A DNA stretch of 64,000 nucleotides from Vicinamibacteria bacterium (lineage in GTDB: Bacteria; Acidobacteriota; Vicinamibacteria; Marinacidobacterales; Marinacidobacteraceae): positions 1,024,001 through 1,088,000 of the forward strand of contig OZ219815.1 of NCBI GenBank assembly GCA_964291235.2, read 5' to 3'. A program made the translations under genes and the position numbers. The notes below the pieces were generated by a model. That model saw only the letters and a program-made list of their open reading frames with translations, searched no databases and was not told the origin of the DNA. Shown here one piece after another: positions 1 through 53,880 of the stretch; position 1 is the stretch's first letter, and each line of letters starts with the position of its first letter.

Positions 1-3000
1 GCCTGGCCGGGAAGCCCCAGCGCTCGCCGGTAGGCGGCCAGTTGATCCAGGAATGCGTTGGCGGCGGCATGGTTTGCCTGTCCCGGGTTCCCCAGGGTGC
101 CGGCAACGCTGGAGAAGAGCACGAACAGGTCCAGATCCCGGTCCGCGGTCGCCCGGTGCAGGTGCCAGCTACCGAGAACCTTGGGCCAGAGAACTCGTTC
201 GAAGTCGGCCCAGGTCTGATTCCCGAGGGCGCGGTCCGACAGCACGCCGACACTGTGGATCACGCCTGCCAGGGGCGGCAGGTTGGCGTCGATGCGAGTC
301 AGCATCGCGTCCACGGCGGCTGCGTCGGTGACGTCGGCGATTTCGACCCGAATGTCCACTCCTCGCCGCCCAAGCTGGCCGATCACCCGTTTGGCCGCGG
401 GGTCTGGAACCCGGCGGCCGTTGAGCACGATCGCTCCGGCGCCCTTGTCCGCCAGCCAACCGGCGAGCGCGCAGCCGATTCCGCCGAGCCCGCCAGTCAC
501 CAGGTAGGTCCTGTCGCTCCTCAGCCGGCCGCCCCTCAAAGAGGGGGCGGTGAACACGATCTTGCCCAGGTGACGCGCCGCCTGCATGAATCGCATTCCG
601 GCGCGTGCTTCCGCGAGGGGCCAACGGCTGTGGATCAGAGGGGTGATCTCGCCGGCCGCGAACTGCCGCATCACGCGCCGGAGAGCGTCTCCGGGTATCG
701 CCGGGCGGTTCTCCTTCAGGTCATCCAGTTCCAGGATGGAATAGGCGACGTCCGGCCGGGCGGCGGCCATTTCCTCCTCGGTCAGGATGCCGCGCCGGGA
801 GAGCTCGACGAACCGGCCGCCTTCGGCCAGACACAACAGGCTGGCTTCGACAAAGCCCTCCCCGGTCAGGCTGTTCACCACCACCTGGACCCCCTGGCCG
901 CCGGTGGCTTCCAGAGTCTCGCTGCCGAAGTCGGTTCGGCGGCTGTCGAACACGTGTTCCACTCCGAGCAACCGCAGAAAATCCTGCTTGGGCGCGCTGG
1001 CAGTGGCAAAGACCTCGGCTCCGGCAGCCTGTGCCAGCTGGATCGCGGCGAGACCGACGCCGCCGGCTCCGGCATGAATCAGGACGCGTTCGCCGGCCTT
1101 CAGTTCGGCAAGGTCATAGGACAGCTGCGCCGATACGAATGCGGTTGGCAGGGTGGCGAGTTCGGAGGCCGGCACGTCCGGCGGCGCCGGCGTCACCATT
1201 TCCTCATGGGTAGTGACCTCGGCACCGAAAGTGCCGAAGGCCAGTCCCACGATCCGGTCCCCCGCTGATACCGCGGAGACATCCTCGCCAACTTCGAGAA
1301 CCCGGCCGCACATCTCTCCGCCCAGGAGCCCCTCCGGAATGAAGCCGATCGAGCGGAAGACGTCCCAGAAATTGAGCCCGGTGGCATCGATCGCGACGCG
1401 AACGTCCCGCGGTCCCAGGGATCGCCGCGGCATCGGTTCGGGATGGAGTTTTTCGAGTGCGCCGCCCGGATCGGGAGTGAGTAGCCAGTCCGGTCCCTCG
1501 GGCACCGGCAGCCGCTCCTCACCGGCGCCGGCCCGGACGAGACGCGCCACCCGCCGGCGCGCTTCCCGGTAGGCAACCTGGGTTTCCGGGTCGGGGAAGA
1601 GCAGCTCTTCCGCAAGGTCCGGCATCGGGACCGGACGTTCGGGATCGAGGTCGAGCATCCGGGGTAGGAGGTGGGGCGCTTCCCGGGCCACCACCTTGCC
1701 GAGTCCCCAAAGGGTTGCGCCGACCACTTGACCGCCGCGTTCCTTTTCCAGGACCTGGGCGCCGCGGGTGATGAACCACACGCCCTTGGCGGGCCTCAGG
1801 TCGGCGTCCACGAGCGCCTGCGCGAGGGCGAGGGCGCTGCCCGTGACGTGGCGGACGGCCTTGGCCATCGCATCCGTCGGGGCGTCCGGTCCGTCCAGCG
1901 CCGCGAGATGCACGATTCCGTTCAGCGGCAGGTCTCCCGGTAGGGTCGCGAGCAGGGAACCCCATGATTCCCGTTCCCGGAAGTCCACGGATCTCCTCTC
2001 GATCCCGGACTTTCCGGTTTCCCCGGCGGCGCCTTGCTCGGCGAGGACGACGGTCTGGTTCCGGCCCGTGAGTTCGATGGCGAGCTCCGCCGCCACGCCG
2101 CCGCAGTCAGCCGCCACCACCCAGACGCCGCCCGGCAGGGTCACCTCCGCCGGGCCCGCCGCCATGATGATCCCCCGGTCGGGTGGGCGGGCGCCTTCCG
2201 AATCGTCCACGCCGAGAAACTCGATCGCTCCGAAGCCGGCGTCCCCAAGCGCCCGGCGCCAGATCGGGGGGCCCGACAACGCGTGGCGCGGGCGGTACCG
2301 GTCGGCAAACCGCCACCAGCCATCGAGTTGTCCGAACGTCAGATCCAGCCAACCCTGACCGCGCAGATTCTCGAGCGCCACAAGTTGTCCCGACGGCGCT
2401 AGCAGCGCCCCGCAATGGGCGAGCGTTTCGTCGAGGTACCGGGTGGCGTGCAACACGTTGGACGCGATCAGCAGGTCGTAGCCGTGAGGGTCGAAGCCCT
2501 GCGCGACGGGTTCTTTTTCGATGTCGAGCACCCGGTACTCGATTGCACCGTTGCCGTCTCCGAAGCGCGCCTCCGCCTCCGCGAAGAAGCCCGCGGAGAT
2601 GTCCGTGTACACGTAGCGGAGACGACCCCCGGGCAACTCCGGCAGGACCGACGCCGTCGCGGATCCGGTGCCGGCCCCGACTTCGATCACCCGAAGATCT
2701 CGGTCGTCCGGCAACCCGGCCACGAGTGCCCGGATGGCATCTCCGAGCATCCGGTTGGCGGCTCGTGCTACCGGCGCCTTCAGATAGAGGTCGGCGGCGG
2801 TCGGCTCGCCGCTGCTGAATAGCAGGGTCAGCGGGTCAGCGCGCCCACGCAGTACTTCGGGAAGAGCTTCGGCGCTGCGCCGGAACAGTCCGATTTCCGT
2901 CGTCCCGTGCGCGTAGGCGCCGGCCATGTGTGTAGCGAACTCCCCCGGATCGGCCGGAAGATCCACCGGCAGCGGATCTCCCGATTCCAGGGTCACCCGA

Positions 3001-6000
3001 AAACCGTCACCGCATTCCTCGACAAGTCCGGACCGGGCAAGCATTTCCAGCATCCGCCGAAAGAGGCGGGTGTGATTCGGAGTGACCTTGAGCCTTTGCC
3101 GCAGGTCTTCCGGGTCCACCACCGCGCCCGTCCGGCGCTCCCAGCCGAGCTGATCCAGCGTCCGGACGGCGTACGACCCGGCCAGCCGTTCCAGATCGTC
3201 GAGGAGCGCCGCTCTGGAGTCCGCCCCGACGTCTTCGGCGGCCAGGTACTGCACGAACGTCTTCGATCCTGCCCGCACGGCCCGCGGGTCCGGCAGGAAG
3301 TCCGCGGCCGGCATGGCCGGGGTCCTGGTGCCGTCGCGCCAGACAACTTCGTAGAGGAGGTCGTCCAGCCCTTCGACGGCGGCCAGCAGGCTGGCTCGCG
3401 TCGCCCGTTTGATCGTGTACCCGTCGAGGCCGCCGAGCGGGACCCCGTTCCTGTCGTAGATGCGCAGATCCGCGCTCAGGACTTCAGGGAGATCGCCAAG
3501 TTCACTGCCCGGCCGGCCTCCGTCGGATTGCCTCGAGCGGACGTGACACCAGACGCTCTCCGGCCAATCTCCCGTGCGCCAGAGCCGCTCCCAGGCAAAC
3601 GGCAGATAGGTAACGCCGTCTTCGCTCGCCGCCGTTCGGCGGGCGGCGGCCATCGCCTGGAAGCACCCGTCCAGCAGCAGCGGGTGCATCTCGATTCCAG
3701 CGAGATCGATGTCCGCTGGCAGCGTAATCTCGGCGAGGGCCTCATTCGGCCCGGACCACAGCCCCCGAAGCGTCCGAAACGACGAACCCAGGCCGATCCC
3801 GATTGCCGCCTTCCCGCGGTAGAAGGCGGAGATGTCCTCGAGCGCCAGCCGGTTCTTGAGGTCTTCGGGATCGATGCGCGGCGCCGCGGACGCACCAGCC
3901 TCACCGGGGGTCGCCACGCCCTCGGCGTGCAGGGTCCACTCGCCGCCGTCCGCTCGGCTCAGGACGCGAACCCGCCGAGACGTCCCCTCCGCGGCCTGAT
4001 CGAGGACCACTTGAAGCCGGCGGGAATCGTCGTCGCCCTCTGCCAGGATCAGCGGGTTGTGGAGCTGGAAGTCCCCGATCCCCAGCATTTCTTGCATTCT
4101 TGAAGACGATGCCGAGACCGCCATGGCCCCGTAAAGGGCCCCCGGCGCGACCAGTCGGTCGAAGACCCGGTGATCGCCCAGCCACGGGGGATTGGTTGCC
4201 GCGACCTCCGTCTCGAAGCCCAGTTCGCCGCTGGCCGACTGGTGGCGGGTTCCCAACAGGGGGTGGCTATCCCGGAGTCGGCGGCGTTTGGCCGGCTTGA
4301 TCCAATGGCGTTCGCGCTGGAACGGATACCCGGGGAGCGGGACCCGACGTCGGGATTCACCCGCGAAGAGCCCCGGAAAGGAGATGGGCAAGCCTGCCTC
4401 GTAAGCGGTCGCCACCGCCCGGACAAAGGAACCTTCAGCGTCTTTCGGCGTTTCGCGTGAGGGCCGCCGCAGGCTGGAGACCACGACCGGAGCTCCATCG
4501 CCCCCCGTTGATTCCGGCCACGCCAGGGACGCCATGGGACCGAGCACGGCGTGGGGGCCGATCTCCACGACGGCGCGGACGCCCATTGCGGCCAGCGTCT
4601 CCACACAGCGCCGAAACTCCACCGGTTCCCGGGTCTGTCGGCGCCAATACCTTCCGTCCAGCGGCCGGTCGGGAGCCCGGACCCGGCCGTCCAGGTTGCT
4701 CACGAACGGAATCGATGGCGGTGCGATGGGAATCTTCGCGAGCGCGGCCTCCAGATCGTCGAGCGCCGGGTCCAGCATCGCGCTGTGGTAGGCGGGGCTC
4801 TTCCTGAGCCGCCGCACCCGGATGTTCCGACGGTCGAAGCGTTCGAGGATTGCCTCGACCTCGTCCGCCGGGCCGCTCACGATCTGGTGTGCACCGTTGT
4901 CCGCGGCGACGCTCAGCCCGAATCCCGAGATCCGGGCGTTTTGTTCCGCGACGGCCGCGGCCACTTCGGACCGGGGCGCGAAGATCGCACCCATGCGGCC
5001 TGCACCGGGTACTGCTCCGATCAACTCGCCCCGGACGGCCGCGAACCGGAGTCCGTCCGCCAACGAGAAGACCCCGGCGGCCTGTGCGGCCGCAAGTTCT
5101 CCGAGGCTGTGGCCAAGGACTACCCCGGGCCGGATTCCCAGGCTCGACCACAGCCCCGTCAGCGCGCACTCCAGCGCGTAGATCGCCGGCTGCTTCCACG
5201 CCGGGTCGTCCAGCTCCGGAGGCGGATCCCCCCGGCCGAACATGGCGTCGAGCAGGGACGCTCCCCTTCGTTCCTCAAAAAGCCTGTCGCAGTGGTGCAG
5301 GATGGCCCGAAACACCGGCTCGGTCCGGTAGAGATCCTCACCCATCCCCACCCACTGGCTCGCCTGTCCGGTGTAGAGGAACGCGACCTTGGGGACTGTC
5401 TGGCCGGGAGCATCAGGCCCGGTTGACCCGCCCGCCCCGGCGATCTCCGCAAGGCGCTGCCGCAGCGACGCCGCATCGCGGAACACCACCCCCGCACGGC
5501 GGCTGAAATGGTTGCGCCCGACTCCCGCCGTCCACGCCAGATCGGCGAGCGGCCCGTCGCCGTCGTTATCGCGTCCACTCTGATCATCCAACCAGGCCAG
5601 AAACCCCTCGGCAATTTCACGGAGGGAGTCTTCCGACTTCCCTGACAGGGGCAGAAGGCGCATGATCCGCGGCTGTAGTGCGGGGCCGGCAGGCAACGGA
5701 TCCGGCACCGATTCCGGCTTTTGGACCGCGATGCGGCGCGCGGCGCCGGAGGGCCAACCGGCGTTCCCGGGACCGCCGGTGGTGCCGTTCGGCGGTGGGT
5801 ATCCCTCAACCACCAGATGGGCGTTGGTGCCGGACCACCCGAACCCACTGACACCCGCGCGCGGTGGGCGATCCAGATGGACCGGCCAGTCCGTTTCCGC
5901 CGCCGTCACCCGGAGGGGCAGGCGCTCCCAATCCATCGTCGGGTTCGGATTTCGGAAATGCAGGTGCCTCGGGATGACGCCATGCCGCATCGCCAGCACG

Positions 6001-30706: not shown

Positions 30707-32503
30707 TCAGCCGGCGGCGAGCACGGCCTCTTCCGCGAACTGCAGCTCGTAGAGCCTCCGGTAGATGCCTCCCTCGGCGAGCAGTTCCTCGTGGGTCCCG
30801 CTCTCGCGGATCGTCCCCCGGTGAAGCACCACGATCCGGTCGGCGCCCCGGACGGTGGAGAGCCGATGGGCGATCACCAGGCTGGTCCGATTCTCCAGCA
30901 CCCGCCCGAGCGCGGTCTGCACGGCGCGCTCGGTCTCGGTGTCCACGCTCGAGGTCGCCTCGTCGAGCACCAGCACGCGCGAGGTGCGGGCCATCGCCCG
31001 GGCGATGCCGACGAGCTGCCGCTGGCCCTGCGACAGGCCGCCGCCGCGTTCGCCGAGCTGGGTGTCGAGTCCGTCCGGCAGATTCCGGGCCCAGGCGGTC
31101 ACCTCGGCCGCCTCCGCGGCCCGCCGGGCATCGTCCTCGGTGATGGATTCGTCTCCCAGCCGGATGTTGTCGAGCACCGTCCCCGAGAAGAGGTGGACGT
31201 CCTGCTGGACCATGGAGAACTGGCGGCGAAGGTCCGGCACCCGCCACTCGCGGACATCCAGGCCGTCCACCACCACCCGGCCGCGCTGCACGTCGTAGAG
31301 CCGCAGCAAGAGCGCGGCGAGGGTCGTCTTGCCCGACCCGGTGTGGCCGACCAGGGCCACCGTTTCACCGGGCGCAATGTGGAAGTCGATGTCCTGAAGC
31401 ACCCATTCGTCTTTGTTGTATGCGAAGGAGACGCCTTCGAGCTGGAGTGCCCCGTGGCGGTGGCCGGGCAGGTGTGCGCCCGGCGCGTTCCCGATGGCGG
31501 GTTTCGTGTCGAGCAGCTCGACGATGCGCTCGGAGGCCGCCAGGGCGCCCTGCAGGATGTTGAACTTCTCCGTCAGGTCGCGGATCGGGCGGAAGAACAT
31601 CTCCGAGTACATGAGGAACGCCACCAGGGCCCCCACGGTGAGCGTTCCCGAGCCGATCCGGGAGCCTCCGTAACCCACGATCAGCGCGACGGTGATGGCG
31701 GTGATCATTTCCACCACCGGGTAGAAGACGGAAAAGCACATCACCGTGTCGAGATGGGCGCCCGTATGTTCCCGGTTCAGCTTCCGGTACTCCCAGGCCC
31801 GCCGCCGTTCCTGCCGGAACAGTTGCAGGACTTCCATTCCGGTCAGCGTCTCCTGGATGAAGGCGTTGACCGACGCGACGGCCGCTCGCACCCGGCGGAA
31901 GGCCGGCCGGATTCTGCGCCGGAAGATCCATCCCGCGATGAAGAGCGCCGGCACCGCGCCGAAGGTCACGAGGGCGAGCCCCGGGTTCATCCAGATGAGG
32001 ACCGCCATGATCCCGACCAGCAGGACCACGTCGGTGATGATCATGACCACCCCGGAACTGAGCAGCTCGTTCAGGGCGTCCACGTCGCTCGTCGCCCGGG
32101 TGACGACCTGTCCGATCGGGTGACGGTCGAACCAGCCGGTGTGGAGTTTCTGGATGTGGTCGAAGACGTCCCGGCGGATGTCCCGCATCACCCGCTGTCC
32201 GAACAGGTTCACTACCCAGGCCTGTCCGTAGGCTCCCGCGAAGCCAACCGCGAGAATGGCCCCGTAGAGACCCAGGATTCCGACGAGCCCCTCCATATCG
32301 CCGGCGGCGATGTAGTCGTCGAGGGCGACCCGGGTCAGATAGGGACCCGCGAGCTGGGCCGTGGTGCCGATCAGGACCAGCAGCACCGCGAGGGTGACGA
32401 ACGGCCAGTAGGGGACCAGGTAGGGCAGCATCCGCCGGAGCAGGCCGCGATTCACCTTCCGGTTGGGATTCGCCTTCCGGTTGGCGGTGCGCGCCTCGCT
32501 CAC
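30707..32503 (-). CDS. ABC exporter, permease plus ATPase (heterodimer subunit, MdlB/YheH-like)
   Basis: Transmembrane domain followed by GHTGSGKT, LSQGQRQ, LDEATS and IAHRLST. Confidence 0.95.
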   Translation of the reverse strand: MSEARTANRKANPNRKVNRGLLRRMLPYLVPYWPFVTLAVLLVLIGTTAQLAGPYLTRVALDDYIAAGDMEGLVGILGLYGAILAVGFAGAYGQAWVVNLFGQRVMRDIRRDVFDHIQKLHTGWFDRHPIGQVVTRATSDVDALNELLSSGVVMIITDVVLLVGIMAVLIWMNPGLALVTFGAVPALFIAGWIFRRRIRPAFRRVRAAVASVNAFIQETLTGMEVLQLFRQERRRAWEYRKLNREHTGAHLDTVMCFSVFYPVVEMITAITVALIVGYGGSRIGSGTLTVGALVAFLMYSEMFFRPIRDLTEKFNILQGALAASERIVELLDTKPAIGNAPGAHLPGHRHGALQLEGVSFAYNKDEWVLQDIDFHIAPGETVALVGHTGSGKTTLAALLLRLYDVQRGRVVVDGLDVREWRVPDLRRQFSMVQQDVHLFSGTVLDNIRLGDESITEDDARRAAEAAEVTAWARNLPDGLDTQLGERGGGLSQGQRQLVGIARAMARTSRVLVLDEATSSVDTETERAVQTALGRVLENRTSLVIAHRLSTVRGADRIVVLHRGTIRESGTHEELLAEGGIYRRLYELQFAEEAVLAAG

Positions 32504-34302
32504 AACCGGGAAAGCTCCTCTTCCAGCATCTGCCGGCGGTACATGCCCGCGTACAGCCCGCCCGCGGCAACCAGGTCGTCATGGCTGCCGCTTTCCACCA
32601 CCTGGGTGGCTCCGGTCTCGTCCGCGTCGAGCAGATAGATCACGTCCGCGTCCTTCACCGTGCTGAGCCGGTGGGCCACGATCACCGTGGTGCGCTCGCG
32701 CGACGCCCTCCGGACCGCCTCGAGGATGCGGGACTCGGTTTCCGAGTCCACCGCGCTCAGGACATCGTCGAACACCAGGATCCGGGTATCGAGGAGCAGC
32801 GCGCGGGCGATGGCGGCGCGCTGGCGCTGCCCGCCGGAAAGCGTGACCCCGCGTTCGCCCACCACGGTGTCGTAGCCCTCGGCGAAGTCCTCGATGTCGC
32901 CCGCGAGTCCGGCTTCCGCCGCGACCCGGCGCACTTCCTCCATCGGGGCCTCGTCGTCGCCGAACGCGAGGTTGTCCCGCAGGGTCATGGAGAACAGGAA
33001 GCTGTCCTGCGGGACGAAACCGATGTCGGTCCGCAGTTCGTGGAGCGGGATCTCGCGGACGTCGCGCCCGTCGATCCGGATCGAGCCCTCCTGAGCGTCG
33101 TAGATCCGGGGGATGAGCCGGGCCACGGTGCTCTTGCCGCTGCCGGTCCTGCCGACGAGCGCCACGGTCTGGCCGGGTTCGATGGCCAGGTTGAAATCGG
33201 CAAGGACCGGCCGGGCCCCCGTTCCGTTTCCGTTGGACAGGGCTCTGCCGCTCGCCGCCGCGGGGTAGGCGAAGCGGACTCCTTGGAATTCGATCGCGGC
33301 CGCCGGCCGCGGCGTTGCGGGCGCCGCGGCCAGGAGCGGCGGAGACGGAAGCGGCTCGGCGTCGAAGATCGCCGCCAGCCGTTTCATGGAGGCGGCGCCT
33401 CGCTGATGGATGTTGACCACCCAGCCGATGGCGATCATCGGCCAGGTCAGGTAGCCGTAGTAGAAGAGGAAGGCGACCAGTTCCCCGAGGGAAATCGCGC
33501 CCCCGATGACCATCCGTCCCCCGAGCACCAGGGACCCGGCGAGGCCCATGCCGATCAGCGCGAGCAGCAACGGGAAGAGCGCCGCGCTCACCGCGACGAG
33601 TTTCATGCTGAGCGCCGCGTAGTCCTCGTTCTCCTTGCCGAAGACCTTGCGCTGCGCGTCCTCCTGCACGAAGGCGCGGACGAGCCGCGACGCTGCCGCG
33701 TTCTCCTGGACCACCGCGGAGATGTCGGCCATCTTCGCCTGCACCGCCTCGGAGCGCCGGAAGATCCGCTCCCCGAGCACCTTCATCAGGATGGAGACGA
33801 CCGGCATCACCGCGAGCGCCACCAGCGTGAGGCGGGGACTGATCGCCAGCATGAACCCGAAACAGCCGACCGTGGTGATGACGGTCTCCACCGGGTACAT
33901 GAGCCCCGGGCCGAGCACCATGCGCACGGCGTTCATGTCCTGCGCGCCGCGGGACAGGATGTCCCCCACCCGGTAGCGCGCGTAGAAGGCCGCCGGCAGC
34001 CGTTGCAGATGGAGATAGAAGGCCCGCCGCATGTCGTACTCGGCGTACCGCGAGACCCCGATCAGGTACCACCGCATGAAGTAGCGGAAGACGGCGGACC
34101 CCGCGGCGGCGGCCACGATGTAGCCGCCATAGGTCCACATCTCGCTGGTCGCCCCGGCTTCGAGCGCGTTGACCGCCCGTTCCAGCACCTGCGGGACGAC
34201 CAGGTAGAACACCCGGCAGAGCACCAGCGCGGTGAACCCGAACGCAAGCCGGCCCTTGTAGGGTCGGAGGTACGGCAGCACCCGCCGCCACATATCCAGC
34301 AT
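32500..34302 (-). CDS. ABC exporter, permease plus ATPase (heterodimer subunit, MdlA/YheI-like)
   Basis: GRTGSGKS, LSGGQRQR and a degenerate Walker B (FDDVLSAVD) typical of heterodimeric exporters. Confidence 0.95.
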   Translation of the reverse strand: MLDMWRRVLPYLRPYKGRLAFGFTALVLCRVFYLVVPQVLERAVNALEAGATSEMWTYGGYIVAAAAGSAVFRYFMRWYLIGVSRYAEYDMRRAFYLHLQRLPAAFYARYRVGDILSRGAQDMNAVRMVLGPGLMYPVETVITTVGCFGFMLAISPRLTLVALAVMPVVSILMKVLGERIFRRSEAVQAKMADISAVVQENAAASRLVRAFVQEDAQRKVFGKENEDYAALSMKLVAVSAALFPLLLALIGMGLAGSLVLGGRMVIGGAISLGELVAFLFYYGYLTWPMIAIGWVVNIHQRGAASMKRLAAIFDAEPLPSPPLLAAAPATPRPAAAIEFQGVRFAYPAAASGRALSNGNGTGARPVLADFNLAIEPGQTVALVGRTGSGKSTVARLIPRIYDAQEGSIRIDGRDVREIPLHELRTDIGFVPQDSFLFSMTLRDNLAFGDDEAPMEEVRRVAAEAGLAGDIEDFAEGYDTVVGERGVTLSGGQRQRAAIARALLLDTRILVFDDVLSAVDSETESRILEAVRRASRERTTVIVAHRLSTVKDADVIYLLDADETGATQVVESGSHDDLVAAGGLYAGMYRRQMLEEELSRL

Positions 34303-34327
34303 CAGGTCGTTACACGGGCACGGAAGA

Positions 34328-34590
34328 GGGAACGCCGGCCTTCACGCCGGCACCGCCGCGCGGAGCGCGGGAAGCGGACAATGCTAATCCGCACGGGCGG
34401 CACACCGGCACGGGAACGCCGGCCTCCAGACCGGCACAGCCCCGCGCAGCGGGGCGGCGGGACGGCCCCCCACGAGCCCAAACAGCGGGCGACCGCCAGG
34501 GAACGCCGATCTCCAGATCGGCACAGCCCCGCGAAGCGGGGCGGCGGGACGGACCCCCCAGCGCCAGAGTGTTTCCCCTCTCGGCGTGGA
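34328..34590 (+). repeat. Composite REP-like cluster (3 units, one degenerate)
   Basis: GGGAACGCCGRYCTCCAGRYCGGCACAGCCCCGC-GNA-GCGGGGCG at 34412 and 34499 (87-bp period), with a partial copy at 34328. Confidence 0.85.
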
Positions 34591-34667
34591 CCACCGGCGG
34601 TTCCGCCCCCGGAATCCTCAACACCCGTGCCATCCCGCCAGTGGCGCGGCGCCGGCAGTGGAGCCGT

Positions 34668-34901
34668 TCAGGTGGTGAGCAGGACGACGAACATCCCGAA
34701 GAGCAAAACGTTCAGCATGGCCAGGGCGCCGAGCATGAAGGCCGTCAGCGCGATCAGCTCGTCCACGCGGGCGATGATGGCGTCCAGCTCGCCGCCTTGC
34801 TTGTCGAATCGTTGGTCAATTCGCCGCTCATGGTCAGCGAACATTTGGCGCACCTCGGCCAGCAGCGGCTGGAGCTTCGGGGTGACGGGTTCCGAAACCA
34901 T
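34668..34901 (-). CDS. Small hypothetical protein, coiled coil plus C-terminal transmembrane helix
   Basis: 77 aa with HERRIDQRFDKQ...IARVDEL followed by a hydrophobic tail; codon pattern looks coding. Confidence 0.6.
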   Translation of the reverse strand: MVSEPVTPKLQPLLAEVRQMFADHERRIDQRFDKQGGELDAIIARVDELIALTAFMLGALAMLNVLLFGMFVVLLTT

Positions 34902-34917
34902 GGTGCGCGTCCGCTGG

Positions 34918-34995
34918 TCAGTCCCCGTGCCGCGCCCGGAGGGGCGGCGCCAGCCGCGCCATCAGGATCATCCGCTCGACCGCATCCGGCCACTC
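34918..34995 (-). repeat. Duplicated 3' end of the thioredoxin-fold gene (copy of 35695-35772)
   Basis: 71/78 nt identical by hand alignment. Encodes EWPDAVERMILMARLAPPLRARHGD* versus EWLDVFERMILMARLAPPLRARHGD*. Confidence 0.92.
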
Positions 34996-35006
34996 GCGGG
35001 GCGTGG

Positions 35007-35411
35007 TCAGGCGCCGGAAGGCAGGCGCTGGATCCCGGGCGCCTCGTCGAAACCGCGATCGAACGACAGGATTCGCGAGATTCCGCACCGATCCATCACC
35101 GCGATGTGCATGGCGTCGCGCGACGAGACCGACGGGACGGAGAACAGCACTTCCCGAGCCCGGAGCGCATCGTCGAGAATGACGGGAAACACCTCGTCCA
35201 CGAGATCGAGCAGAGCCGAAAACGCCGGGTGAATGGCGTCCGGACGGCGGATCGCCGAATAGCGGTGCAGGATCTCCTGAAGCACCTCCACGCTCGTCAC
35301 CAGCCTTTCGCCGGTCAACGCCAGACCCTCCAGCGCTCGCCGCGCCTCGTCCCGGCAGGGATGGGGGCTCCCGATCAGATACATCGGGATGTTGGAGTCC
35401 ACGAATGTCAC
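35007..35411 (-). CDS. vapC: VapC PIN-domain toxin
   Basis: FVDSNIPMY, TSVEVLQEILH, SSRDAMHIA and ILSFDRGFD motifs. Confidence 0.93.
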   Translation of the reverse strand: MTFVDSNIPMYLIGSPHPCRDEARRALEGLALTGERLVTSVEVLQEILHRYSAIRRPDAIHPAFSALLDLVDEVFPVILDDALRAREVLFSVPSVSSRDAMHIAVMDRCGISRILSFDRGFDEAPGIQRLPSGA

Positions 35412-35656
35412 TCGGCGGTGCGCCCCGCTTCGATCTCGGCGAGCATCTGGTCAATGTCCCCGGTGGGGAAGGAATAGGAGGTGGCGATTCGAATCGCGCG
35501 GAGCTTTTGCTCCGCCTTCTTCGCCGGCCCGTCCTGTTTGGCCTCCCGGAGGCGCAGGCGAACCCACTCGGACAGTCGAAGTCCCTCGCGCTGGGCGGCG
35601 TCCCGATACCCCCGCAATTCGTCCGCGTCCATAACGACCTGGAGACGTGTACTCAT
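35408..35656 (-). CDS. VapB-type (RHH-like) antitoxin
   Basis: MSTRLQVVMD...LSEWVR...FPTGDIDQMLAEIE; 4-nt overlap with vapC. Confidence 0.82.
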   Translation of the reverse strand: MSTRLQVVMDADELRGYRDAAQREGLRLSEWVRLRLREAKQDGPAKKAEQKLRAIRIATSYSFPTGDIDQMLAEIEAGRTAE

Positions 35657-35681
35657 ACGATGAGTATATCCGCAGTATACA
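35650..35681 (-). promoter_or_regulatory. Probable leaderless promoter and operator of vapBC
   Basis: TATACT lies 6 nt before the ATG. The palindrome TACTCAT-N3-ATGAGTA (35650-35666) overlaps the start codon. Confidence 0.6.
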
Positions 35682-35694
35682 GGGGTCAGACTCG

Positions 35695-36282
35695 TCAATC
35701 CCCGTGCCGCGCCCGGAGCGGCGGCGCCAGCCGCGCCATCAGGATCATCCGCTCGAACACGTCGAGCCACTCGGCCGTCTCGGCGGCAAGGGCTCCGCCG
35801 TCCGCCGACCCGGGCAGCGGGCACGCGGCGCCGAGTTCCGTCGCAGCTTTCTCGCGGTACACCGCCAGCGGCCGGTCCCCGAACCGGCCGATCTCGTGGA
35901 AGTCCTCCGTCAGGAACACGACCATCGGAACCCGCATGGCGCCCAGTACGCGAAGCTCGTCCCGCAGTTCCGGGATGGCGTCCCGGTCCACGAGGCGCAG
36001 ATCGACGGATGGCCCCGCCGCCTCGGCGAGCCGCGCCACGATCGGGACCGAGCGGACGCAGTCCCCGCACCAGATTCCGCTGAGGCAGAGCACGTTCACG
36101 ATGCGGCCGGCGGCGTCGAGTCGGGTGGTGGCGTCTTCCGGCAGCGCCGGAAGCGCGGCCCCGGCCCGCGTCCAGGCCGCCTGTTCGCGGTCGTTTCCGG
36201 TGGCGACGTAGTCGGAGTACGGCAGGCCCTCCTCGAAGGCGTCGCGGAACAGGTCGGACCGGCGATCAAAGTACGCGCTCAT
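35695..36282 (-). CDS. Thioredoxin-fold protein (Thioredoxin_9-like)
   Basis: LSGIWCGDCVRSVP, RVPMVVFLTEDF and GAAC motifs. Confidence 0.85.
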   Translation of the reverse strand: MSAYFDRRSDLFRDAFEEGLPYSDYVATGNDREQAAWTRAGAALPALPEDATTRLDAAGRIVNVLCLSGIWCGDCVRSVPIVARLAEAAGPSVDLRLVDRDAIPELRDELRVLGAMRVPMVVFLTEDFHEIGRFGDRPLAVYREKAATELGAACPLPGSADGGALAAETAEWLDVFERMILMARLAPPLRARHGD

Positions 36283-36462: not shown

Positions 36463-38184
36463 TTGTCCGACGAGATCGCCTGGTACGACGCCCATGCCGA
36501 GATGCTGGCGGATCGCTACGAGGCTGTCTCTCCGGAGCGCGTTCATGGCTGGCTGACGGACTTATTGCCTTCGCAGCCCGCGACCATCCTCGACGTTGGT
36601 GCCGGCAGTGGTCGCGATGCGGCATGGTTGGCTTACAAGGGCTACGAAGTCGTCGCGGTCGAACCGTCCTCCGGACTTCGCACGATGGCGCGTGAACGGC
36701 ACGACGTTCCGCGCATTCAATGGATCTCCGACTCGCTGCCCGGCCTCAAACGTACGTTCCGGACCGGCCTCGCCTTCGACGTGATCCTGGTCAGCGCGGT
36801 CTGGATGCATGTCGCCCCATCGGACCGGGCGAGGGCGTTCAGAAAGCTGATCACACTCCTCAAGCCTGGCGGCGTCTTGGCCATCACGCTGCGCAGCGGC
36901 TCCGCCGAGGCGGGCCGCACGTTCCATCCTGTCTCTGCGGCGGAGATCAAGCGCCTCGCGCGGGATCACGGTGCGTTTGTCGAACGGGAGAACACCGCCG
37001 CCGACCAGCTCGGCCGCCGCGAGATCCGTTGGGAACAACTGGCGGTCCGGCTTCCAGACGACGGTACCGGCGCACTGCCGCTGCTGCGGCACGTCATTCT
37101 GAACGACGACAAGAGTTCCACGTACAAGCTCGGCCTGCTGCGCGTGCTCTGCCGCATCGCCGACAGCGCCGGCGGGTTCGCATCGCCGGTGGACGACGAG
37201 CACGTCGCGATTCCGATGGGCCTGGTGGCGCTGACCTGGATTCGGCTCTACAAGCCGCTGCTGGCGGCAGACTTGCCCCAGAACCGGAATAACCAGCAGG
37301 GTGGTCAGGGACTCGGTTTCGCCAAGGAGGCTTTCGGGCAGCTCGCATATCTGTCAGACCTTCGGATGGGCTCACGGCTCACCGGCGACAGCGGCCGGGC
37401 GCTCCACCACGCACTCAGGGACGTGGCGGGCACCATTCGTAGGATGCCGGCGCGCCACATGACGTATCCCAACGCGCCGGAACCCATTCTTCCCGCAGGG
37501 GCCGGTACGGCAGGCCGGTATCCGGGTGGGGTGCGGCTGGACGAGCCGTACCTCGCGAGCTTCGGCACGATGCGGGTACCGATCCACCTGTGGCAGGCGG
37601 CTCAACGTTTTGCCGTGTGGATCGAACCCGCGATCGTTGCTGAATGGAAGCGGATGACCCGATCCTACGCGGAGAGACAGGGACGCAGGCTTGAAGACGC
37701 CCAGCTCTCTGCGGCCATGACCTGGGAGGATCCCACTCGGGACGTAAGCCTTGCGCGGGAGCAGGCCGAGCGGTTGCTCGCCGAACAGCCTCTCCATTGC
37801 GTCTGGAGCGGTAAGCGTCTGTCCGTTGACAAACTCGACATGGATCACTGTTTCCCATGGGCCGTCTGGCCCTGCGGAGACCTCTGGAACCTGCTACCCA
37901 CGCACCGAACGGTCAATCAGCACGAGAAGCGCGACCTCCTGCCGTCGGACCGGCTGCTCAGGGCCGCGCAGGACCGGATTCTCGGCTGGTGGCACGATGC
38001 GTACCGGGCGCACCCGGACCACCCGCTGGCCGAGCGCTTCATGCTGGAAGCTGCGGTCAGCCTGCCGGGCATCCTCTCAACAGAGACCGATCTCGACGGC
38101 TGCTATTCCGCCCTCGAGCTGCAACGGTTGCGGCTGAGCCAGAACCAGCAGGCGCCGGAGTGGAGCGGAGCAAAGTACCTGTGA
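36463..38184 (+). CDS. Class I SAM methyltransferase fused to an HNH endonuclease domain
   Basis: ILDVGAGSGRDAAWL...VAVEPS and SAVWMH in the N-terminus, NDDKSSTYKLGLL in the middle, and CVWSG...DMDHCFPW...DLWNLLPT...VNQHEKRD at the end. Start (TTG) is approximate. Confidence 0.88.
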   Translation: MSDEIAWYDAHAEMLADRYEAVSPERVHGWLTDLLPSQPATILDVGAGSGRDAAWLAYKGYEVVAVEPSSGLRTMARERHDVPRIQWISDSLPGLKRTFRTGLAFDVILVSAVWMHVAPSDRARAFRKLITLLKPGGVLAITLRSGSAEAGRTFHPVSAAEIKRLARDHGAFVERENTAADQLGRREIRWEQLAVRLPDDGTGALPLLRHVILNDDKSSTYKLGLLRVLCRIADSAGGFASPVDDEHVAIPMGLVALTWIRLYKPLLAADLPQNRNNQQGGQGLGFAKEAFGQLAYLSDLRMGSRLTGDSGRALHHALRDVAGTIRRMPARHMTYPNAPEPILPAGAGTAGRYPGGVRLDEPYLASFGTMRVPIHLWQAAQRFAVWIEPAIVAEWKRMTRSYAERQGRRLEDAQLSAAMTWEDPTRDVSLAREQAERLLAEQPLHCVWSGKRLSVDKLDMDHCFPWAVWPCGDLWNLLPTHRTVNQHEKRDLLPSDRLLRAAQDRILGWWHDAYRAHPDHPLAERFMLEAAVSLPGILSTETDLDGCYSALELQRLRLSQNQQAPEWSGAKYL

Positions 38185-38295
38185 ATCAGCGCCGGATGGA
38201 CGGGCGCACGTTGCCCGCTGTCCGGGTCCGGGGGATCGTTTCCGAATCGGTGGGCGCTTGATATTGCCGACCCCGACCGGGATCAGCGACTCGAT

Positions 38296-38647
38296 ATCGA
38301 CCGGAGCTGCCTCCCGCGGCTGCCGTTATCGACCGGAGCTGCCGTTGCCGACCCCGGATATCGACCGGAGCTGTCTTCCGCGGATGCCGTTATCGACCGG
38401 AGCTGTCTCCCGCGGATGCCGTTATCGACCGGAGCTGCCTTTCGCGGACGCCGTTATCGACCGGAGCTGTCTCCCGCGGCTGCCGTCATCGACCGGAGCT
38501 GTCTCCCGCGGACGCCGTTATCGACCGGAGCTGTCTCCCGCGGCTGCCGTCATCGACCGGAGCTGGCGTCGCCGACCCCGGATATCGACCGGAGCTGGCG
38601 TCGCCGACCCTGTATATCGACCGGAGCTGCCGTCGCTGTGCCGGAGA
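38296..38647. repeat. Tandem array of 11 units with an exact 32-bp period
   Basis: Invariant ATCGACCGGAGCTG at 38296, 38328, 38360, 38392, 38424, 38456, 38488, 38520, 38552, 38584 and 38616. Confidence 0.95.
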
Positions 38648-38901
38648 AAAGAAAGCCGCCCGCAAGGACGGAATCTCCCACGGCCCTTGACCGAGCAATG
38701 GTCGCAAAAGGGTCACCACAGCGATCAGGGGCGGCGCGGGTCTCGGCGTCGTCTGCATGCCGGGTCTTGCGGGGCCAACGTCGCGGTGGCCCGCCGGTTG
38801 GCCGGCAACATGTCGCAGTAGCGGCCTGCGGTACTCTCGACCTGTGTCCGCCGGTTCGCGGCGGACGCGACTTCCGCTGAATCTCTGAAGCAGGATCTGC
38901 T

Positions 38902-40581: not shown

Positions 40582-41025
40582 GGGCTGCTGGGGTTCCCGC
40601 CGAGACGGGAGCCGTCTTGACGGTTGGGGGGCTGTCCCGGCGCCCGCCTGCGGCGGGCTGTGCCGATCTGGAGATCGGCGTTCCATTGCGGTCGCCCGCC
40701 GACTGTGCTCGTGGGGGTCTGTCCCGGCGCCCCGCTTCGCGGGGCTGTGCCGATCTGGAGATCGGCGTTCCATTGCGGTCGCCCGCCGCCTGTGCTCGCG
40801 GGGTCCGTCCCGCCGCCCCGCTTCGCGGGGCTGTGCCGATCTGGAGATCGGCGTTCCCGTGCCGGTGGTGCTGTGGGGGCTGGAGGGCGATGTGCGTTTC
40901 GCTCCCCGGCGGGGAGCGGCCCCCACCGGGAGAACTGGGCCGGCCGGAGGCCGGCGCTCCGCTGTCGTGCGACGCCAAGGCTGGCCGGGGTACCCGCCGA
41001 GACACAGCCATCTTGACGGTGGGGC
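40582..41025 (-). repeat. Composite REP-like cluster (3 tandem units of about 87 bp plus flanking modules)
   Basis: GGGCTGTGCCGATCTGGAGATCGGCGTTCC occurs three times between ~40655 and 40858; GCCGGCCGGAGGCCGGCGCTCC at ~40940. Confidence 0.88.
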
Positions 41026-49907: not shown

Positions 49908-50326
49908 CTCAGACCTCCTTTGTGCCACCGGCACTATGAGTGGTCCGTTTTCCCGGGGCAACTCCACTCCAGGCCGGCACAGCCCGCCGTAGGCGGGCGT
50001 CGGCACGTCCCCCCCAGCGCCCAGACGGCTCCCCTCTCGGCGCGGCCCCCAACAGCCCCCACAGCACCGCCCGCACGGGAACGCCGGCCTCCAGGCCGGC
50101 ACAGCCCGCCGTAGGCGGGCGGCAGCCCGTACCCCCCGGGGCCAGGGCGGCGCCGCTCTCGGCGTAAACCCCCGCAACCGTAATGTCGCACAGGCACGGG
50201 AACGCCGACCTCCAGGTCGGCACAGCCCGCCGTAGGCGGGCGTCGGCACGTCCCCCCCCAGCGTCCGGACGGTTCCGCTCTCGGCGGAAACTCCAGCAGC
50301 CCTAACGGCGATACGATCCCGGAGCG

Positions 50327-53552: not shown

Positions 53553-53775
53553 TCGTCGCGCGGAGACGATTCCGGACCCGCGAAGGGGCGGGCGACCGTA
53601 CACCTATGTAGCGCGCGTCGCTGTGTTTACGCTGTGACGGCCTCGGAATATCGGCCTGCTTCCTGTTCTTGGCGACCAGGTCGGCACAGCGGTGCGGAGC
53701 GCGCCGCGGGTGGTTCCTCGCCGCTCGGGCTCACGGGGTCCCTCGGAAAGAGCGAACCATCCCGGCCAGCCAGGT

Positions 53776-53880
53776 CCGTCCCGCCGCCCGCCTACGGCGG
53801 GCTGTGCCGGCCTGGAGGCCGGCGTTCCCTTGCCTGTCCGACGTCAAGGCCGGGTGGGGTTCCCGCCGAGAGGGGAACCA
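53776..53880 (-). repeat. Single composite REP-like unit
   Basis: CGCCCGCCTACGGCGGGCTGTGCCGGCCTGGAGGCCGGCGTTCCC at ~53786-53830. Confidence 0.85.

Follow-up and report, generated by a model that had tools for sequence, protein, structure and literature searches.

Here we report a stack of small insertions behind a thioredoxin-fold gene in the genome of an uncultured acidobacterium (G000; 3.45 Mb, two contigs, metagenome-type assembly), in which the relics of that gene's 3′ end left behind the insertions are real. The initial annotation had described a series of small, recombinase-free insertions, each followed by a host-gene-end relic, and this description is borne out. We lean towards reading the locus as a scar stack of "insertion with long target duplication", formed by homologous recombination with DNA of a related lineage and without a dedicated recombinase; among known systems, the best fit is that the locus extends this class of insertion to toxin-antitoxin cargo. 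The window is the whole 64-kb stretch of DNA that was analysed, and coordinates refer to it. On the minus strand the order is the Thioredoxin_9 gene, an 82-aa ORF, a PIN-domain ORF, a first tail copy (T1), a 77-aa ORF, a weak second tail copy (T2), three REP-like repeats and an ABC-transporter gene; ORF calls and the sequence agree with the gene order given in the initial annotation. The features are as follows.

35695-36282, minus strand: host gene, thioredoxin-fold (Thioredoxin_9), 195 aa (Pfam PF14595, E 9.2e-21)
35691-35773, minus strand: T, the in-gene copy of the duplicated 3′ end, covering the final 26 codons, the stop codon and 4 further nt (direct-repeat search)
35650-35666, minus strand: 7-3-7 inverted repeat over the vapB start codon, a candidate operator (read from the sequence)
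35408-35656, minus strand: putative antitoxin gene (vapB-like), 82 aa (ORF call)
35007-35411, minus strand: vapC, PIN-domain toxin gene, 134 aa, intact (PF01850, E 9.4e-16)
34914-34996, minus strand: relic 1 (T1), an 83-nt copy of the host gene end (90% identity to 35691-35773)
34668-34901, minus strand: 77-aa ORF, the 3′ half left of a truncated gene for a coiled-coil protein (ORF call and longer homologues)
34618-34655, minus strand: relic 2 (T2), the host gene's final ~13 codons in decayed form (alignment with G002 and L096)
34328-34565, no strand given: three copies of a ~87-nt REP-like repeat, in the ancestral spacer before the ABC-transporter gene (repeat search)
32500-34302, minus strand: ABC-transporter gene, ancestrally next downstream of the host gene (ORF and synteny in relatives)

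The insert between T and T1 is 697 nt long and holds vapB and vapC alone. It encodes a PIN-domain toxin preceded by a small ORF in the same operon, the stop of the 82-aa ORF overlapping the vapC start (GTGA), and on this evidence 35007-35411 and 35408-35656 are read as a VapBC toxin-antitoxin pair with a putative antitoxin. The 82-aa ORF is named vapB from its position only; it has no Pfam or NCBIfam family above the cut-off, and is 44% identical to the ORF in the antitoxin position of L115, another Acidobacteria MAG, which itself gives a sub-threshold NikA-like match (PF21983). VapC has no match by sequence among solved structures, and no sigma-70-type consensus promoter was found in 34550-35800, where the initial annotation had proposed a leaderless promoter for the pair. 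The 7-3-7 palindrome is partially conserved in a related genome (G002) and in a metagenome contig (L096). The toxin gene is broken in relatives, by an inversion in G002, by an in-frame TAG and an altered 3′ end in L096, and by truncation at aa 85 in G013. The breakpoints in G002 and G013 lie at a 14-nt tail-like motif in vapC, which was considered as a recombination site and dropped because a 6-nt microhomology explains the inversion joint in G002.

T1 begins 10 nt past the vapC stop and matches T over 83 nt at 90% identity with a spacing of 777 nt; the two are the only copies in the 3.45-Mb genome. The T1 stop (34918-34920) aligns with that of the host gene. Over the last 20 codons the copies differ only by CCG/CCC and GAT/GAC, both synonymous, so that the first tail copy behind vapBC stands as initially described, including its synonymous-only end. 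Over the 26 codons compared there are three synonymous and four non-synonymous codon differences, the latter all at the 5′ edge in our reading of the alignment; five differences fall in the 5′ 23 nt and three in the 3′ 60 nt (Fisher p 0.034). Taken alone, the synonymous signal in the last 20 codons of T1 (2/2) is not significant.

The 77-aa ORF starts 16 nt past the T1 stop, at an ATG that corresponds to an internal Met of a longer form. Its homologue in G013 has 184 aa, and the gene is likewise longer at its 5′ end in L096. The "77-aa membrane protein" of the initial annotation is thus a small ORF following T1, as claimed, yet it represents the 3′ half of a longer gene and not a complete cassette gene. 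We read the product as a coiled coil with a hydrophobic stretch at the end. Neither Pfam nor NCBIfam holds a family above the cut-off for the 77-aa ORF, nor NCBIfam for the 184-aa homologue or for ORF126 of G013, and in the protein atlas the ORF falls in unnamed coiled-coil clusters only. In L096, vapBC and the longer form of the coiled-coil gene are both present, and no tail copy 1 separates them.

In G000 alone the second relic does not stand out from chance: its score was reached by 365 of 5000 dinucleotide shuffles, by 349 of 6392 windows of real sequence and, with a longer query, by 437 of 3000 shuffles. The homologous stretches in G002 and L096 score 87 and 69, each beating all 3000 shuffles, and continue into the sequence found past the stop codon where the site is empty. 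On these two grounds we regard T2 as real, although the match first noted in this genome was not significant against shuffles. Small indels are common to the three T2 relics (G000, G002 and L096) in our reading of the alignment. T2 is more decayed than T1, in agreement with the claim that relic decay increases with distance from the host gene.

The host gene is kept in 23 of 24 same-family genomes searched, and its tail peptide is conserved across all 20 loci aligned. The empty sites anticipated in related genomes were found: at 12 of 19 relatives' loci the host gene adjoins the ABC-transporter gene, 3-296 nt from its stop, and one further locus has only REP-like repeats in the gap. A tail match within the host-transporter gap occurs only in G000 and G002, while related arrangements were seen in G002, G013 and L093-L096. 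G013 has two fragments of the host gene between the same cargo genes, one internal (aa 42-133) and one from the 5′ part (~aa 1-70), which suggests whole-gene tandem copies. This genome also has the largest insert at the locus among the relatives, ~2.6 kb, in which no PF00589-type ORF was noticed. No integrase-bearing island occupies the host-gene site in 16 of the 19 relatives' loci (one genome per species), the remaining three being cut by contig ends.

The same architecture recurs elsewhere in the genome. Behind an FGE-sulfatase gene, a nucleotidyltransferase (NTP_transf_2) gene is followed by a 163-nt relic, with empty sites in relatives. All seven differences between gene and relic in G000 are synonymous over 54 codons (P 1e-4 if changes are random, 0.0026 if only the gene copy was constrained), and at least three of these changes arose on the relic lineage. 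The relic in another relative, G004, has three derived changes, all synonymous, and four of four differences synonymous overall; relic length varies by species, 163 versus 79 nt. Behind a GntP permease gene, DUF2442/DUF4160 cargo is followed by a 128-nt relic and the native 22-nt spacer. This site is empty in 10 of 16 genus genomes and holds cargo without a relic in three, so that the relic is 128 nt or none according to species. Four of its eight differing codons are non-synonymous, and gene tail and relic look like each other's closest relatives in the alignment. On the left, collinearity breaks down between the GntP cassette of G000 and those of cassette-bearing relatives (~6 versus ~115 nt after the stop). 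The duplicated ends at the three loci (thioredoxin-fold, FGE-sulfatase and GntP permease) are mutually unrelated. Alignment A3 was read without the G002 row.

A genome-wide scan of ORF tails found the excess of gene-end relics that the initial annotation had proposed looking for. Relic-type matches numbered 12 downstream versus 4 upstream, and at a score of at least 50, 63 tails matched downstream on the same strand versus one on the opposite strand. The FGE locus is absent from the scan list, as a repeat longer than 120 nt fails the "no upstream extension" filter. The apparent relic of the candidate at C1 stop 1112643 proved to be the end of a neighbouring paralogue, and five candidates of low identity were set aside (C1 stops 1203868, 1216013 and 1216532; C2 stops 430351 and 1925913).

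Beyond this genome, a homologous vapBC pair lies behind an S9 peptidase gene in L115 (VapC 61% and VapB 44% identical) and is followed by a 90-nt relic of the end of that gene, in which all differences are non-synonymous in our reading of the alignment. Neither vapBC nor a relic lies within 1.5 kb of the peptidase orthologue in the 11 relatives that have it; since downstream synteny is not conserved, no exact empty site could be defined for L115. No direct repeat flanks seven vapC-homologue loci in relatives, and in a wider genome scan nine of ten such loci lack a flanking tail repeat, L115 being the exception; these loci count against the explanation that we prefer.

To our knowledge, insertion with long target duplication has for 25 years been known from restriction-modification genes without a mechanism. 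It is said to go back to Nobusato et al. 2000 (Gene 259:99). As far as the available text of Furuta, Abe & Kobayashi 2010 (PMC2853133) describes them, such inserts have a long, variable direct target duplication (>30 bp, of the order of 100 bp) and contain no transposase or integrase, and the repeat is single at the related empty site, is unique in the genome and may overlap the 3′ end of a neighbouring gene; those authors suggest double-strand breakage as the route. Compared with that description, the locus has a repeat above 30 bp (83 nt) that is single at 12 of 19 loci, which are empty, and is not multicopy, and an insert below 20 kb (697 nt) with no mobility gene. The requirement for R and M cargo in the same text belongs to the published screen and not to the mechanism; here the cargo is a PIN toxin and a small upstream ORF. 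The published cargo is restriction-modification, although the supplementary cases of that paper may include others, whereas the cargo found here is VapBC, a nucleotidyltransferase and DUF2442/DUF4160. Relative to the cases in the available text, we also find serial relics at one gene, a synonymous-only relic at one locus and an uncultured acidobacterium as host.

On the preferred reading, a vapBC pair and a now-truncated coiled-coil gene would have been added between the host gene and its ABC-transporter neighbour. Every addition would have duplicated part of the host gene, which is why the gene stayed whole, and the old copy would have been displaced downstream and then decayed. Incoming DNA of a related lineage would carry the conserved gene end together with adjacent cargo. 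Ordinary homology inside the gene end could let a circularised fragment enter by one crossover, or could support a one-ended invasion, and illegitimate joining would seal the other side; the genome has a gene for Ku. The product would be gene, cargo, old gene end and native flank. Later deletions might trim the redundant copy differently in each lineage, and the direct repeats would permit loop-out back to an empty site, against which a toxin-antitoxin pair may favour retention. We infer that the mechanism most likely operates without a dedicated recombinase. The all-synonymous differences of the FGE relic suggest that alleles of related lineages recombined, and this pattern appears hard to reconcile with duplication of a resident target followed by decay. 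The earlier claim that the tails are alleles and not a fresh slippage duplicate is accordingly weak for T1 alone and strong at the FGE locus. Cargo genes at three loci have both ends within 10-38 nt of the repeats, which is tidier than random fragment ends predict and counts against the preferred reading. It also counts against that reading that relics with synonymous differences alone could have come from later allelic replacement of either copy.

Four other explanations have to be weighed. A chimera of two strains might be suspected in a two-contig metagenome-type assembly, and the initial annotation had named this as a danger, but the contigs speak against it and we give it almost no credence. 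Contigs of three samples from one study reproduce every junction piecewise with no differences, and a 1950-nt contig from a run of another study covers 34637-36219 at ~93% identity, spanning the T2 edge, the 77-aa ORF, T1, vapBC, T and the host gene; the related arrangements in relatives point the same way, and the array stands. A 417-nt low-depth contig in X1 (~91% identical) that joins 34305 to 35693 was attributed to a relative with an empty-type site and not to excision. The integron-like capture proposed in the initial annotation, with a specialised recombinase, the coding 3′ end as attachment site and time-ordered stacking, shares with integron cassettes small serial cargo units, some of which are toxin-antitoxin pairs, and could draw on the compact cargo, the serial order and the increase of relic decay with distance. 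It is nevertheless not supported and we consider it very improbable. IntI, attI and attC are absent here and the repeat is host coding sequence, with no recombinase gene in or near the array; none of the 14 PF00589 hits in the genome lies in the window, the nearest being 49.5 kb from the locus. Neither T nor T1, on either strand, folds into an attC-like single long hairpin (z -1.64, -1.52, +1.19 and +1.11). The duplicated ends differ in sequence between loci and their boundaries vary, G013 holds other pieces of the gene, no relic separates the cargo genes in L096, and what was taken for a second cassette is a truncated gene.

The remaining two are more serious, although we judge each of them unlikely. 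The e14 prophage and phage 21 at icd carry their own integrase and a replacement gene end, leaving the old end downstream with mostly synonymous differences. The present locus resembles them in having a replacement end with the insert and the old end downstream, and differs in its cargo of 0.6-0.7 kb without an integrase. The stack might be what is left of integrase-bearing elements (CIME-type accretion) that carried a replacement end, integrated serially at the 3′ end and then lost all but the toxin-antitoxin pair and one further gene, or it might consist of small elements without an integrase that are moved in trans by one encoded elsewhere. Such elements are classically recognised by direct repeats that contain the target gene 3′ end (attL/attR-type) and diverge at synonymous sites, allele-like FGE relics would fit an element-borne gene end, and the PF00589 hits show that candidate integrases exist in the genome. 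Tandem arrays by accretion are documented for CIMEs and ICEs/IMEs (ICESt1/ICESt3-type), with site-specific integrases and fixed att cores, in the available text of PMC5704250. In contrast, no integrase element lies at the site in the 16 assembled relatives' loci (one genome per species), nor within 1.5 kb at the FGE and GntP sites where these are assembled, and three unrelated gene ends would require three integrase specificities. The tail core has no match in viral contigs and matches just once at every one of 15 genome and 3 metagenome loci. There is also no fixed boundary, since T1 measures 83 nt and T2 ~40 nt, the pieces in G013 span aa 42-133 and 1-70, and the FGE relic is 163 or 79 nt long, differing between species at one locus. 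It is about equally improbable, in our view, that the loci arose by rearrangement in situ, with replication template switching or a tandem duplication copying the gene end around DNA that was resident or had been captured, and later homologous exchange with relatives putting another allele in the place of one copy. The mixed changes at GntP, whose copies look like each other's closest relatives, and the non-synonymous changes in L115 mean that duplication in situ followed by decay fits those loci, and the pieces in G013 hint at tandem copies. The lack of collinearity on the left of the GntP cassette means that a simple copy from a donor like the cassette-bearing relatives fails to explain it, which counts against the preferred reading. 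However, a second process would be needed for the FGE differences in G000 and G004, and the source of the cargo would be left unexplained, most relatives' sites being empty.

A more ambitious and tentative extension of recombination with related-lineage DNA, which we consider rather unlikely, is that toxin-antitoxin cassettes are "homology-addressed" mobile units that carry a host gene's end, circle out and re-enter the same gene by RecA alone. If so, conserved gene ends would serve as recombinase-free attachment sites at which repeated rounds build time-ordered stacks, and the presence of one vapBC family behind two unrelated genes (in the window and in L115) would be a property of the cassette and not chance. 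More generally, the genome provides several clear examples whose sites are empty in relatives, and toxin-antitoxin pairs are another addictive gene class. Were gene ends to act as homology landing pads, this would explain the entry of accessory genes into streamlined genomes without mobile-element machinery, and relics could reveal the order of acquisition. Separately, the REP-like repeat that fills the spacer before the ABC-transporter gene has 193 blastn matches of at least 45 nt genome-wide, and copies of it lie in the same spacer of several relatives.

The locus behind the Thioredoxin_9 gene (the host gene) of this genome (3.45 Mb in two contigs, G+C 68%) is best read as an insertion with long target duplication. 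The order proposed in the initial annotation, with a copy of the gene's end behind vapBC, was confirmed, and its elements lie as follows.

Features of the host-gene locus in the window
35695–36282, minus strand: Thioredoxin_9 gene
35408–35656, minus strand: 82-aa ORF, putative vapB, so named from its position
35007–35411, minus strand: PIN-domain gene (vapC), its start overlapping the stop of the 82-aa ORF
34914–34996, minus strand: relic 1, an 83-nt copy of the host-gene end, sharing 90% identity with the copy inside the gene (35691–35773)
34668–34901, minus strand: 77-aa ORF
about 34618–34655, minus strand: relic 2, a weak tail-like stretch
34328–34565: three REP-like repeats, between relic 2 and the ABC-transporter gene
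past the REP-like repeats, at the end of the minus-strand order: ABC-transporter gene

The 83-nt repeat has two copies in the whole genome, one in the gene and the other relic 1. A chimeric assembly is contradicted by contigs from three samples of one study, which matched every junction piecewise with 0 differences, and by a 1950-nt contig from a run of another study, which covers 34637–36219 at about 93% identity and, on our reading of its loose end, runs on into a better-preserved relic 2. Relic 1 is thus real and common to a diverged population.

The host gene is present in 23 of the 24 same-family genomes searched, and its surroundings were compared at 19 loci from relatives. The empty site anticipated by the initial annotation was found at 12 of them, with 3–296 nt between the host and transporter genes, and a further locus has a 607-nt gap containing REP-like repeats only. 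Three loci are broken off at contig ends, and two (in G002 and G013) hold decayed versions of the window's cargo. At the remaining locus, in a genome of another genus (G020), the identical slot is filled by a different pair, Phd/YefM-like plus PIN (L023:4316–5020), without a tail copy; in G024, of the same genus as G020, the gap between the two genes is 3 nt. A match of the gap to the gene's own tail was seen in the genome under study and G002 only. The cargo also occurs on four more contigs (L093–L096), of which L096 carries vapB, a vapC interrupted by an in-frame TAG and changed at its 3′ end, an extended version of the 77-aa gene and relic 2, in this order and with relic 1 missing. In a tree of the transporter gene G013 falls among empty-site genomes, in a well-supported clade apart from the genome under study, L096 and the G002-like contigs, which implies that the cargo was either repeatedly lost or swapped between lineages. 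G013 also has a long 53-nt tandem-repeat array upstream of a second vapC copy (80% identical, with an in-frame TAG; L028:6–1158).

The possible second tail copy of the initial annotation is at chance level in this genome when compared with shuffled sequence, but is upheld by its counterparts in G002 and L096, which scored 87 and 69 against a query made of the gene's final 45 nt and 30 nt of flanking sequence from the empty site, values reached by 0 of 3000 shuffles each. Because these matches extend into the empty-site flank, and small indels are, as we read the alignments, common to all three versions, relic 2 is a copy, inherited along with its native flank, of the gene's original end. Two clean cassettes are too simple a description of the stack: L096 is without relic 1, and the 77-aa ORF is a truncated gene, aligning with the 3′ half of a gene that in G013 encodes a 184-aa coiled-coil protein with a hydrophobic end. 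Its counterpart in L096 is likewise longer at the 5′ side, and the ATG of the 77-aa ORF, 16 nt past the stop of relic 1, corresponds to a Met inside the G013 and L096 proteins. The vapC 3′ end in the genome under study is authentic, since paralogues align up to residue 132–133, and L096 retains the 5′ half of the 77-aa-type gene; both arrangements therefore go back, via different deletions, to an ancestor in which both genes were whole.

The order in G013 is intact host gene, vapB fragment, vapC residues 1–85, a host-gene pseudogene piece (aa 42–133), a 126-aa ORF, the 184-aa gene, a decayed relic 2, a host-gene piece of about aa 1–70, and the transporter gene. A model in which the gene's 3′ end serves as an att site is not supported for the stack, as the internal and 5′ host-gene pieces are not predicted by it; large or whole-gene duplicates, whittled down afterwards, do predict them. 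Integron-like capture, as originally proposed, is not supported either: the tails did not form attC-like hairpins in a folding test, and the nearest of the 14 PF00589 matches in the genome lies 49.5 kb off. What holds of that proposal is a series of recombinase-free insertions with gene-end relics, with two relics present and no PF00589 match found in the window by profile search of the genome. Ku is encoded in this genome (domain at C2:94555–95091), inside a 1394-aa open frame that may reflect either fusion to a ligase-type gene or read-through into one.

The recurrence expected from the initial annotation was borne out by two scans of the genome, a k-mer search for isolated direct repeats of low copy number (40 nt or longer, 78% identity or higher, 60–8000 nt apart) and a comparison of 2707 ORF tails with 6 kb downstream, upstream and on the opposite strand, both of which gave additional relic cases. 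Of the tail matches scoring at least 50, 63 lay downstream and 59 upstream, with a single one on the opposite strand, both same-strand counts being inflated by tandem paralogues; matches aligned to the stop and free of homology further upstream numbered 12 downstream versus 4 upstream. Cargo at the other candidate loci ranges from 115 nt to 2.6 kb. Two sister loci were compared with relatives and are listed with one from another Acidobacteria MAG (L115).

Further loci with gene-end relics
L057:2157–3038, this genome: FGE-sulfatase gene, REP-like element, 114-aa nucleotidyltransferase gene, 163-nt relic with stop aligned
L058:2433–3309, this genome: GntP permease gene, DUF2442/DUF4160 pair, 128-nt relic, 22-nt spacer resembling the empty-site spacer
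L115:2048–3213: S9 dipeptidyl-peptidase gene, vapBC homologous to that of the window (VapC 61%, VapB 44% identical), 90-nt relic of the peptidase-gene end

The same nucleotidyltransferase cargo is found in G004 (L067) with a 79-nt FGE relic, and in G009 the FGE gene lies about 90 nt from a convergent downstream gene. The GntP site is empty in 10 of 16 genus genomes, and three have the DUF pair in the same spacer, lack the relic and show about 115 nt of additional sequence on the left.

The suggestion that the tails are allelic coding ends fits the FGE locus, where relic and live gene differ at seven sites over 54 codons, each a synonymous third-position change (P about 1e-4, given a synonymous chance of 0.272 for a random change at this tail; P = 0.0026 under a model of constrained gene and neutral relic). 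Polarisation with 13 orthologues places at least 3 changes on the relic lineage. In G004 too, the relic departs from the live gene at synonymous sites only, and 3 of its changes are derived. The FGE relics were still functional gene ends in the recent past, originating either from another lineage at insertion or through later replacement of one copy by a foreign allele. For relic 1, however, the signal is weak, as 3 of the codons that differ from the gene tail do so synonymously and 4 non-synonymously; of its nucleotide differences, 5 fall within the first 23 nt at the 5′ side and 3 within the remaining 60 nt (Fisher p 0.034). The GntP tail and relic differ by mixed synonymous and non-synonymous changes, and at L115 we read every difference as non-synonymous, patterns that are consistent with decay in situ.

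Insertion with long target duplication was described by Furuta, Abe and Kobayashi for small restriction-modification (RM) units lying between direct repeats of more than 30 bp and variable length, the repeat being single at the empty site and in some cases overlapping the neighbour's 3′ end; the units are, in the excerpted text, without mobility genes, double-strand breakage is offered as a cause, and a virus-like cycle is put forward as a hypothesis (PMC2853133). Mruk and Kobayashi restate the same scheme, in the excerpted text for RM systems only (PMC3874152), and a limited literature search did not find insertion with target duplication or direct repeats described for toxin-antitoxin cassettes. 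CIME and accretion arrays look similar but, as excerpted, need integrases (PMC5704250). For the window, insertion with long target duplication would most likely have involved homologous recombination with related-lineage DNA inside the conserved gene end, an illegitimate join closing the other side, and subsequent decay through deletions.

The REP-like unit (~87 nt, often tandem) gave 193 blastn matches of at least 45 nt genome-wide (100 and 93 on the two contigs), including further window sites at 40625–40858, 49967–50257 and 53773–53829, and copies occupy the thioredoxin-transporter spacer in several relatives. At 38258–38880 a short peptide motif recurs many times in ORF translations, which suggests a further tandem DNA repeat family distinct from the REP-like unit. 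The divergent neighbour (about 36487–38184, plus strand) is a single ORF in which a SAM-methyltransferase domain is combined with a C-terminal HNH_4 match below threshold (20.9 bits, cut-off 22), and shows 75–83% identity across several relatives; its distance from the thioredoxin gene is 155 nt in some relatives and about 1.3 kb in others, so that the host gene's upstream side is also variable. One of the other candidate loci from the genome scans (L059 about 2028–3154; C1:847027–848154) has a putative Phd/ParE-like pair, as we read the ORF translations, lying in opposite orientation behind an amidohydrolase-like gene and followed by a 53-nt copy of that gene's interior, about 330 nt before its stop on our reading of the frames.
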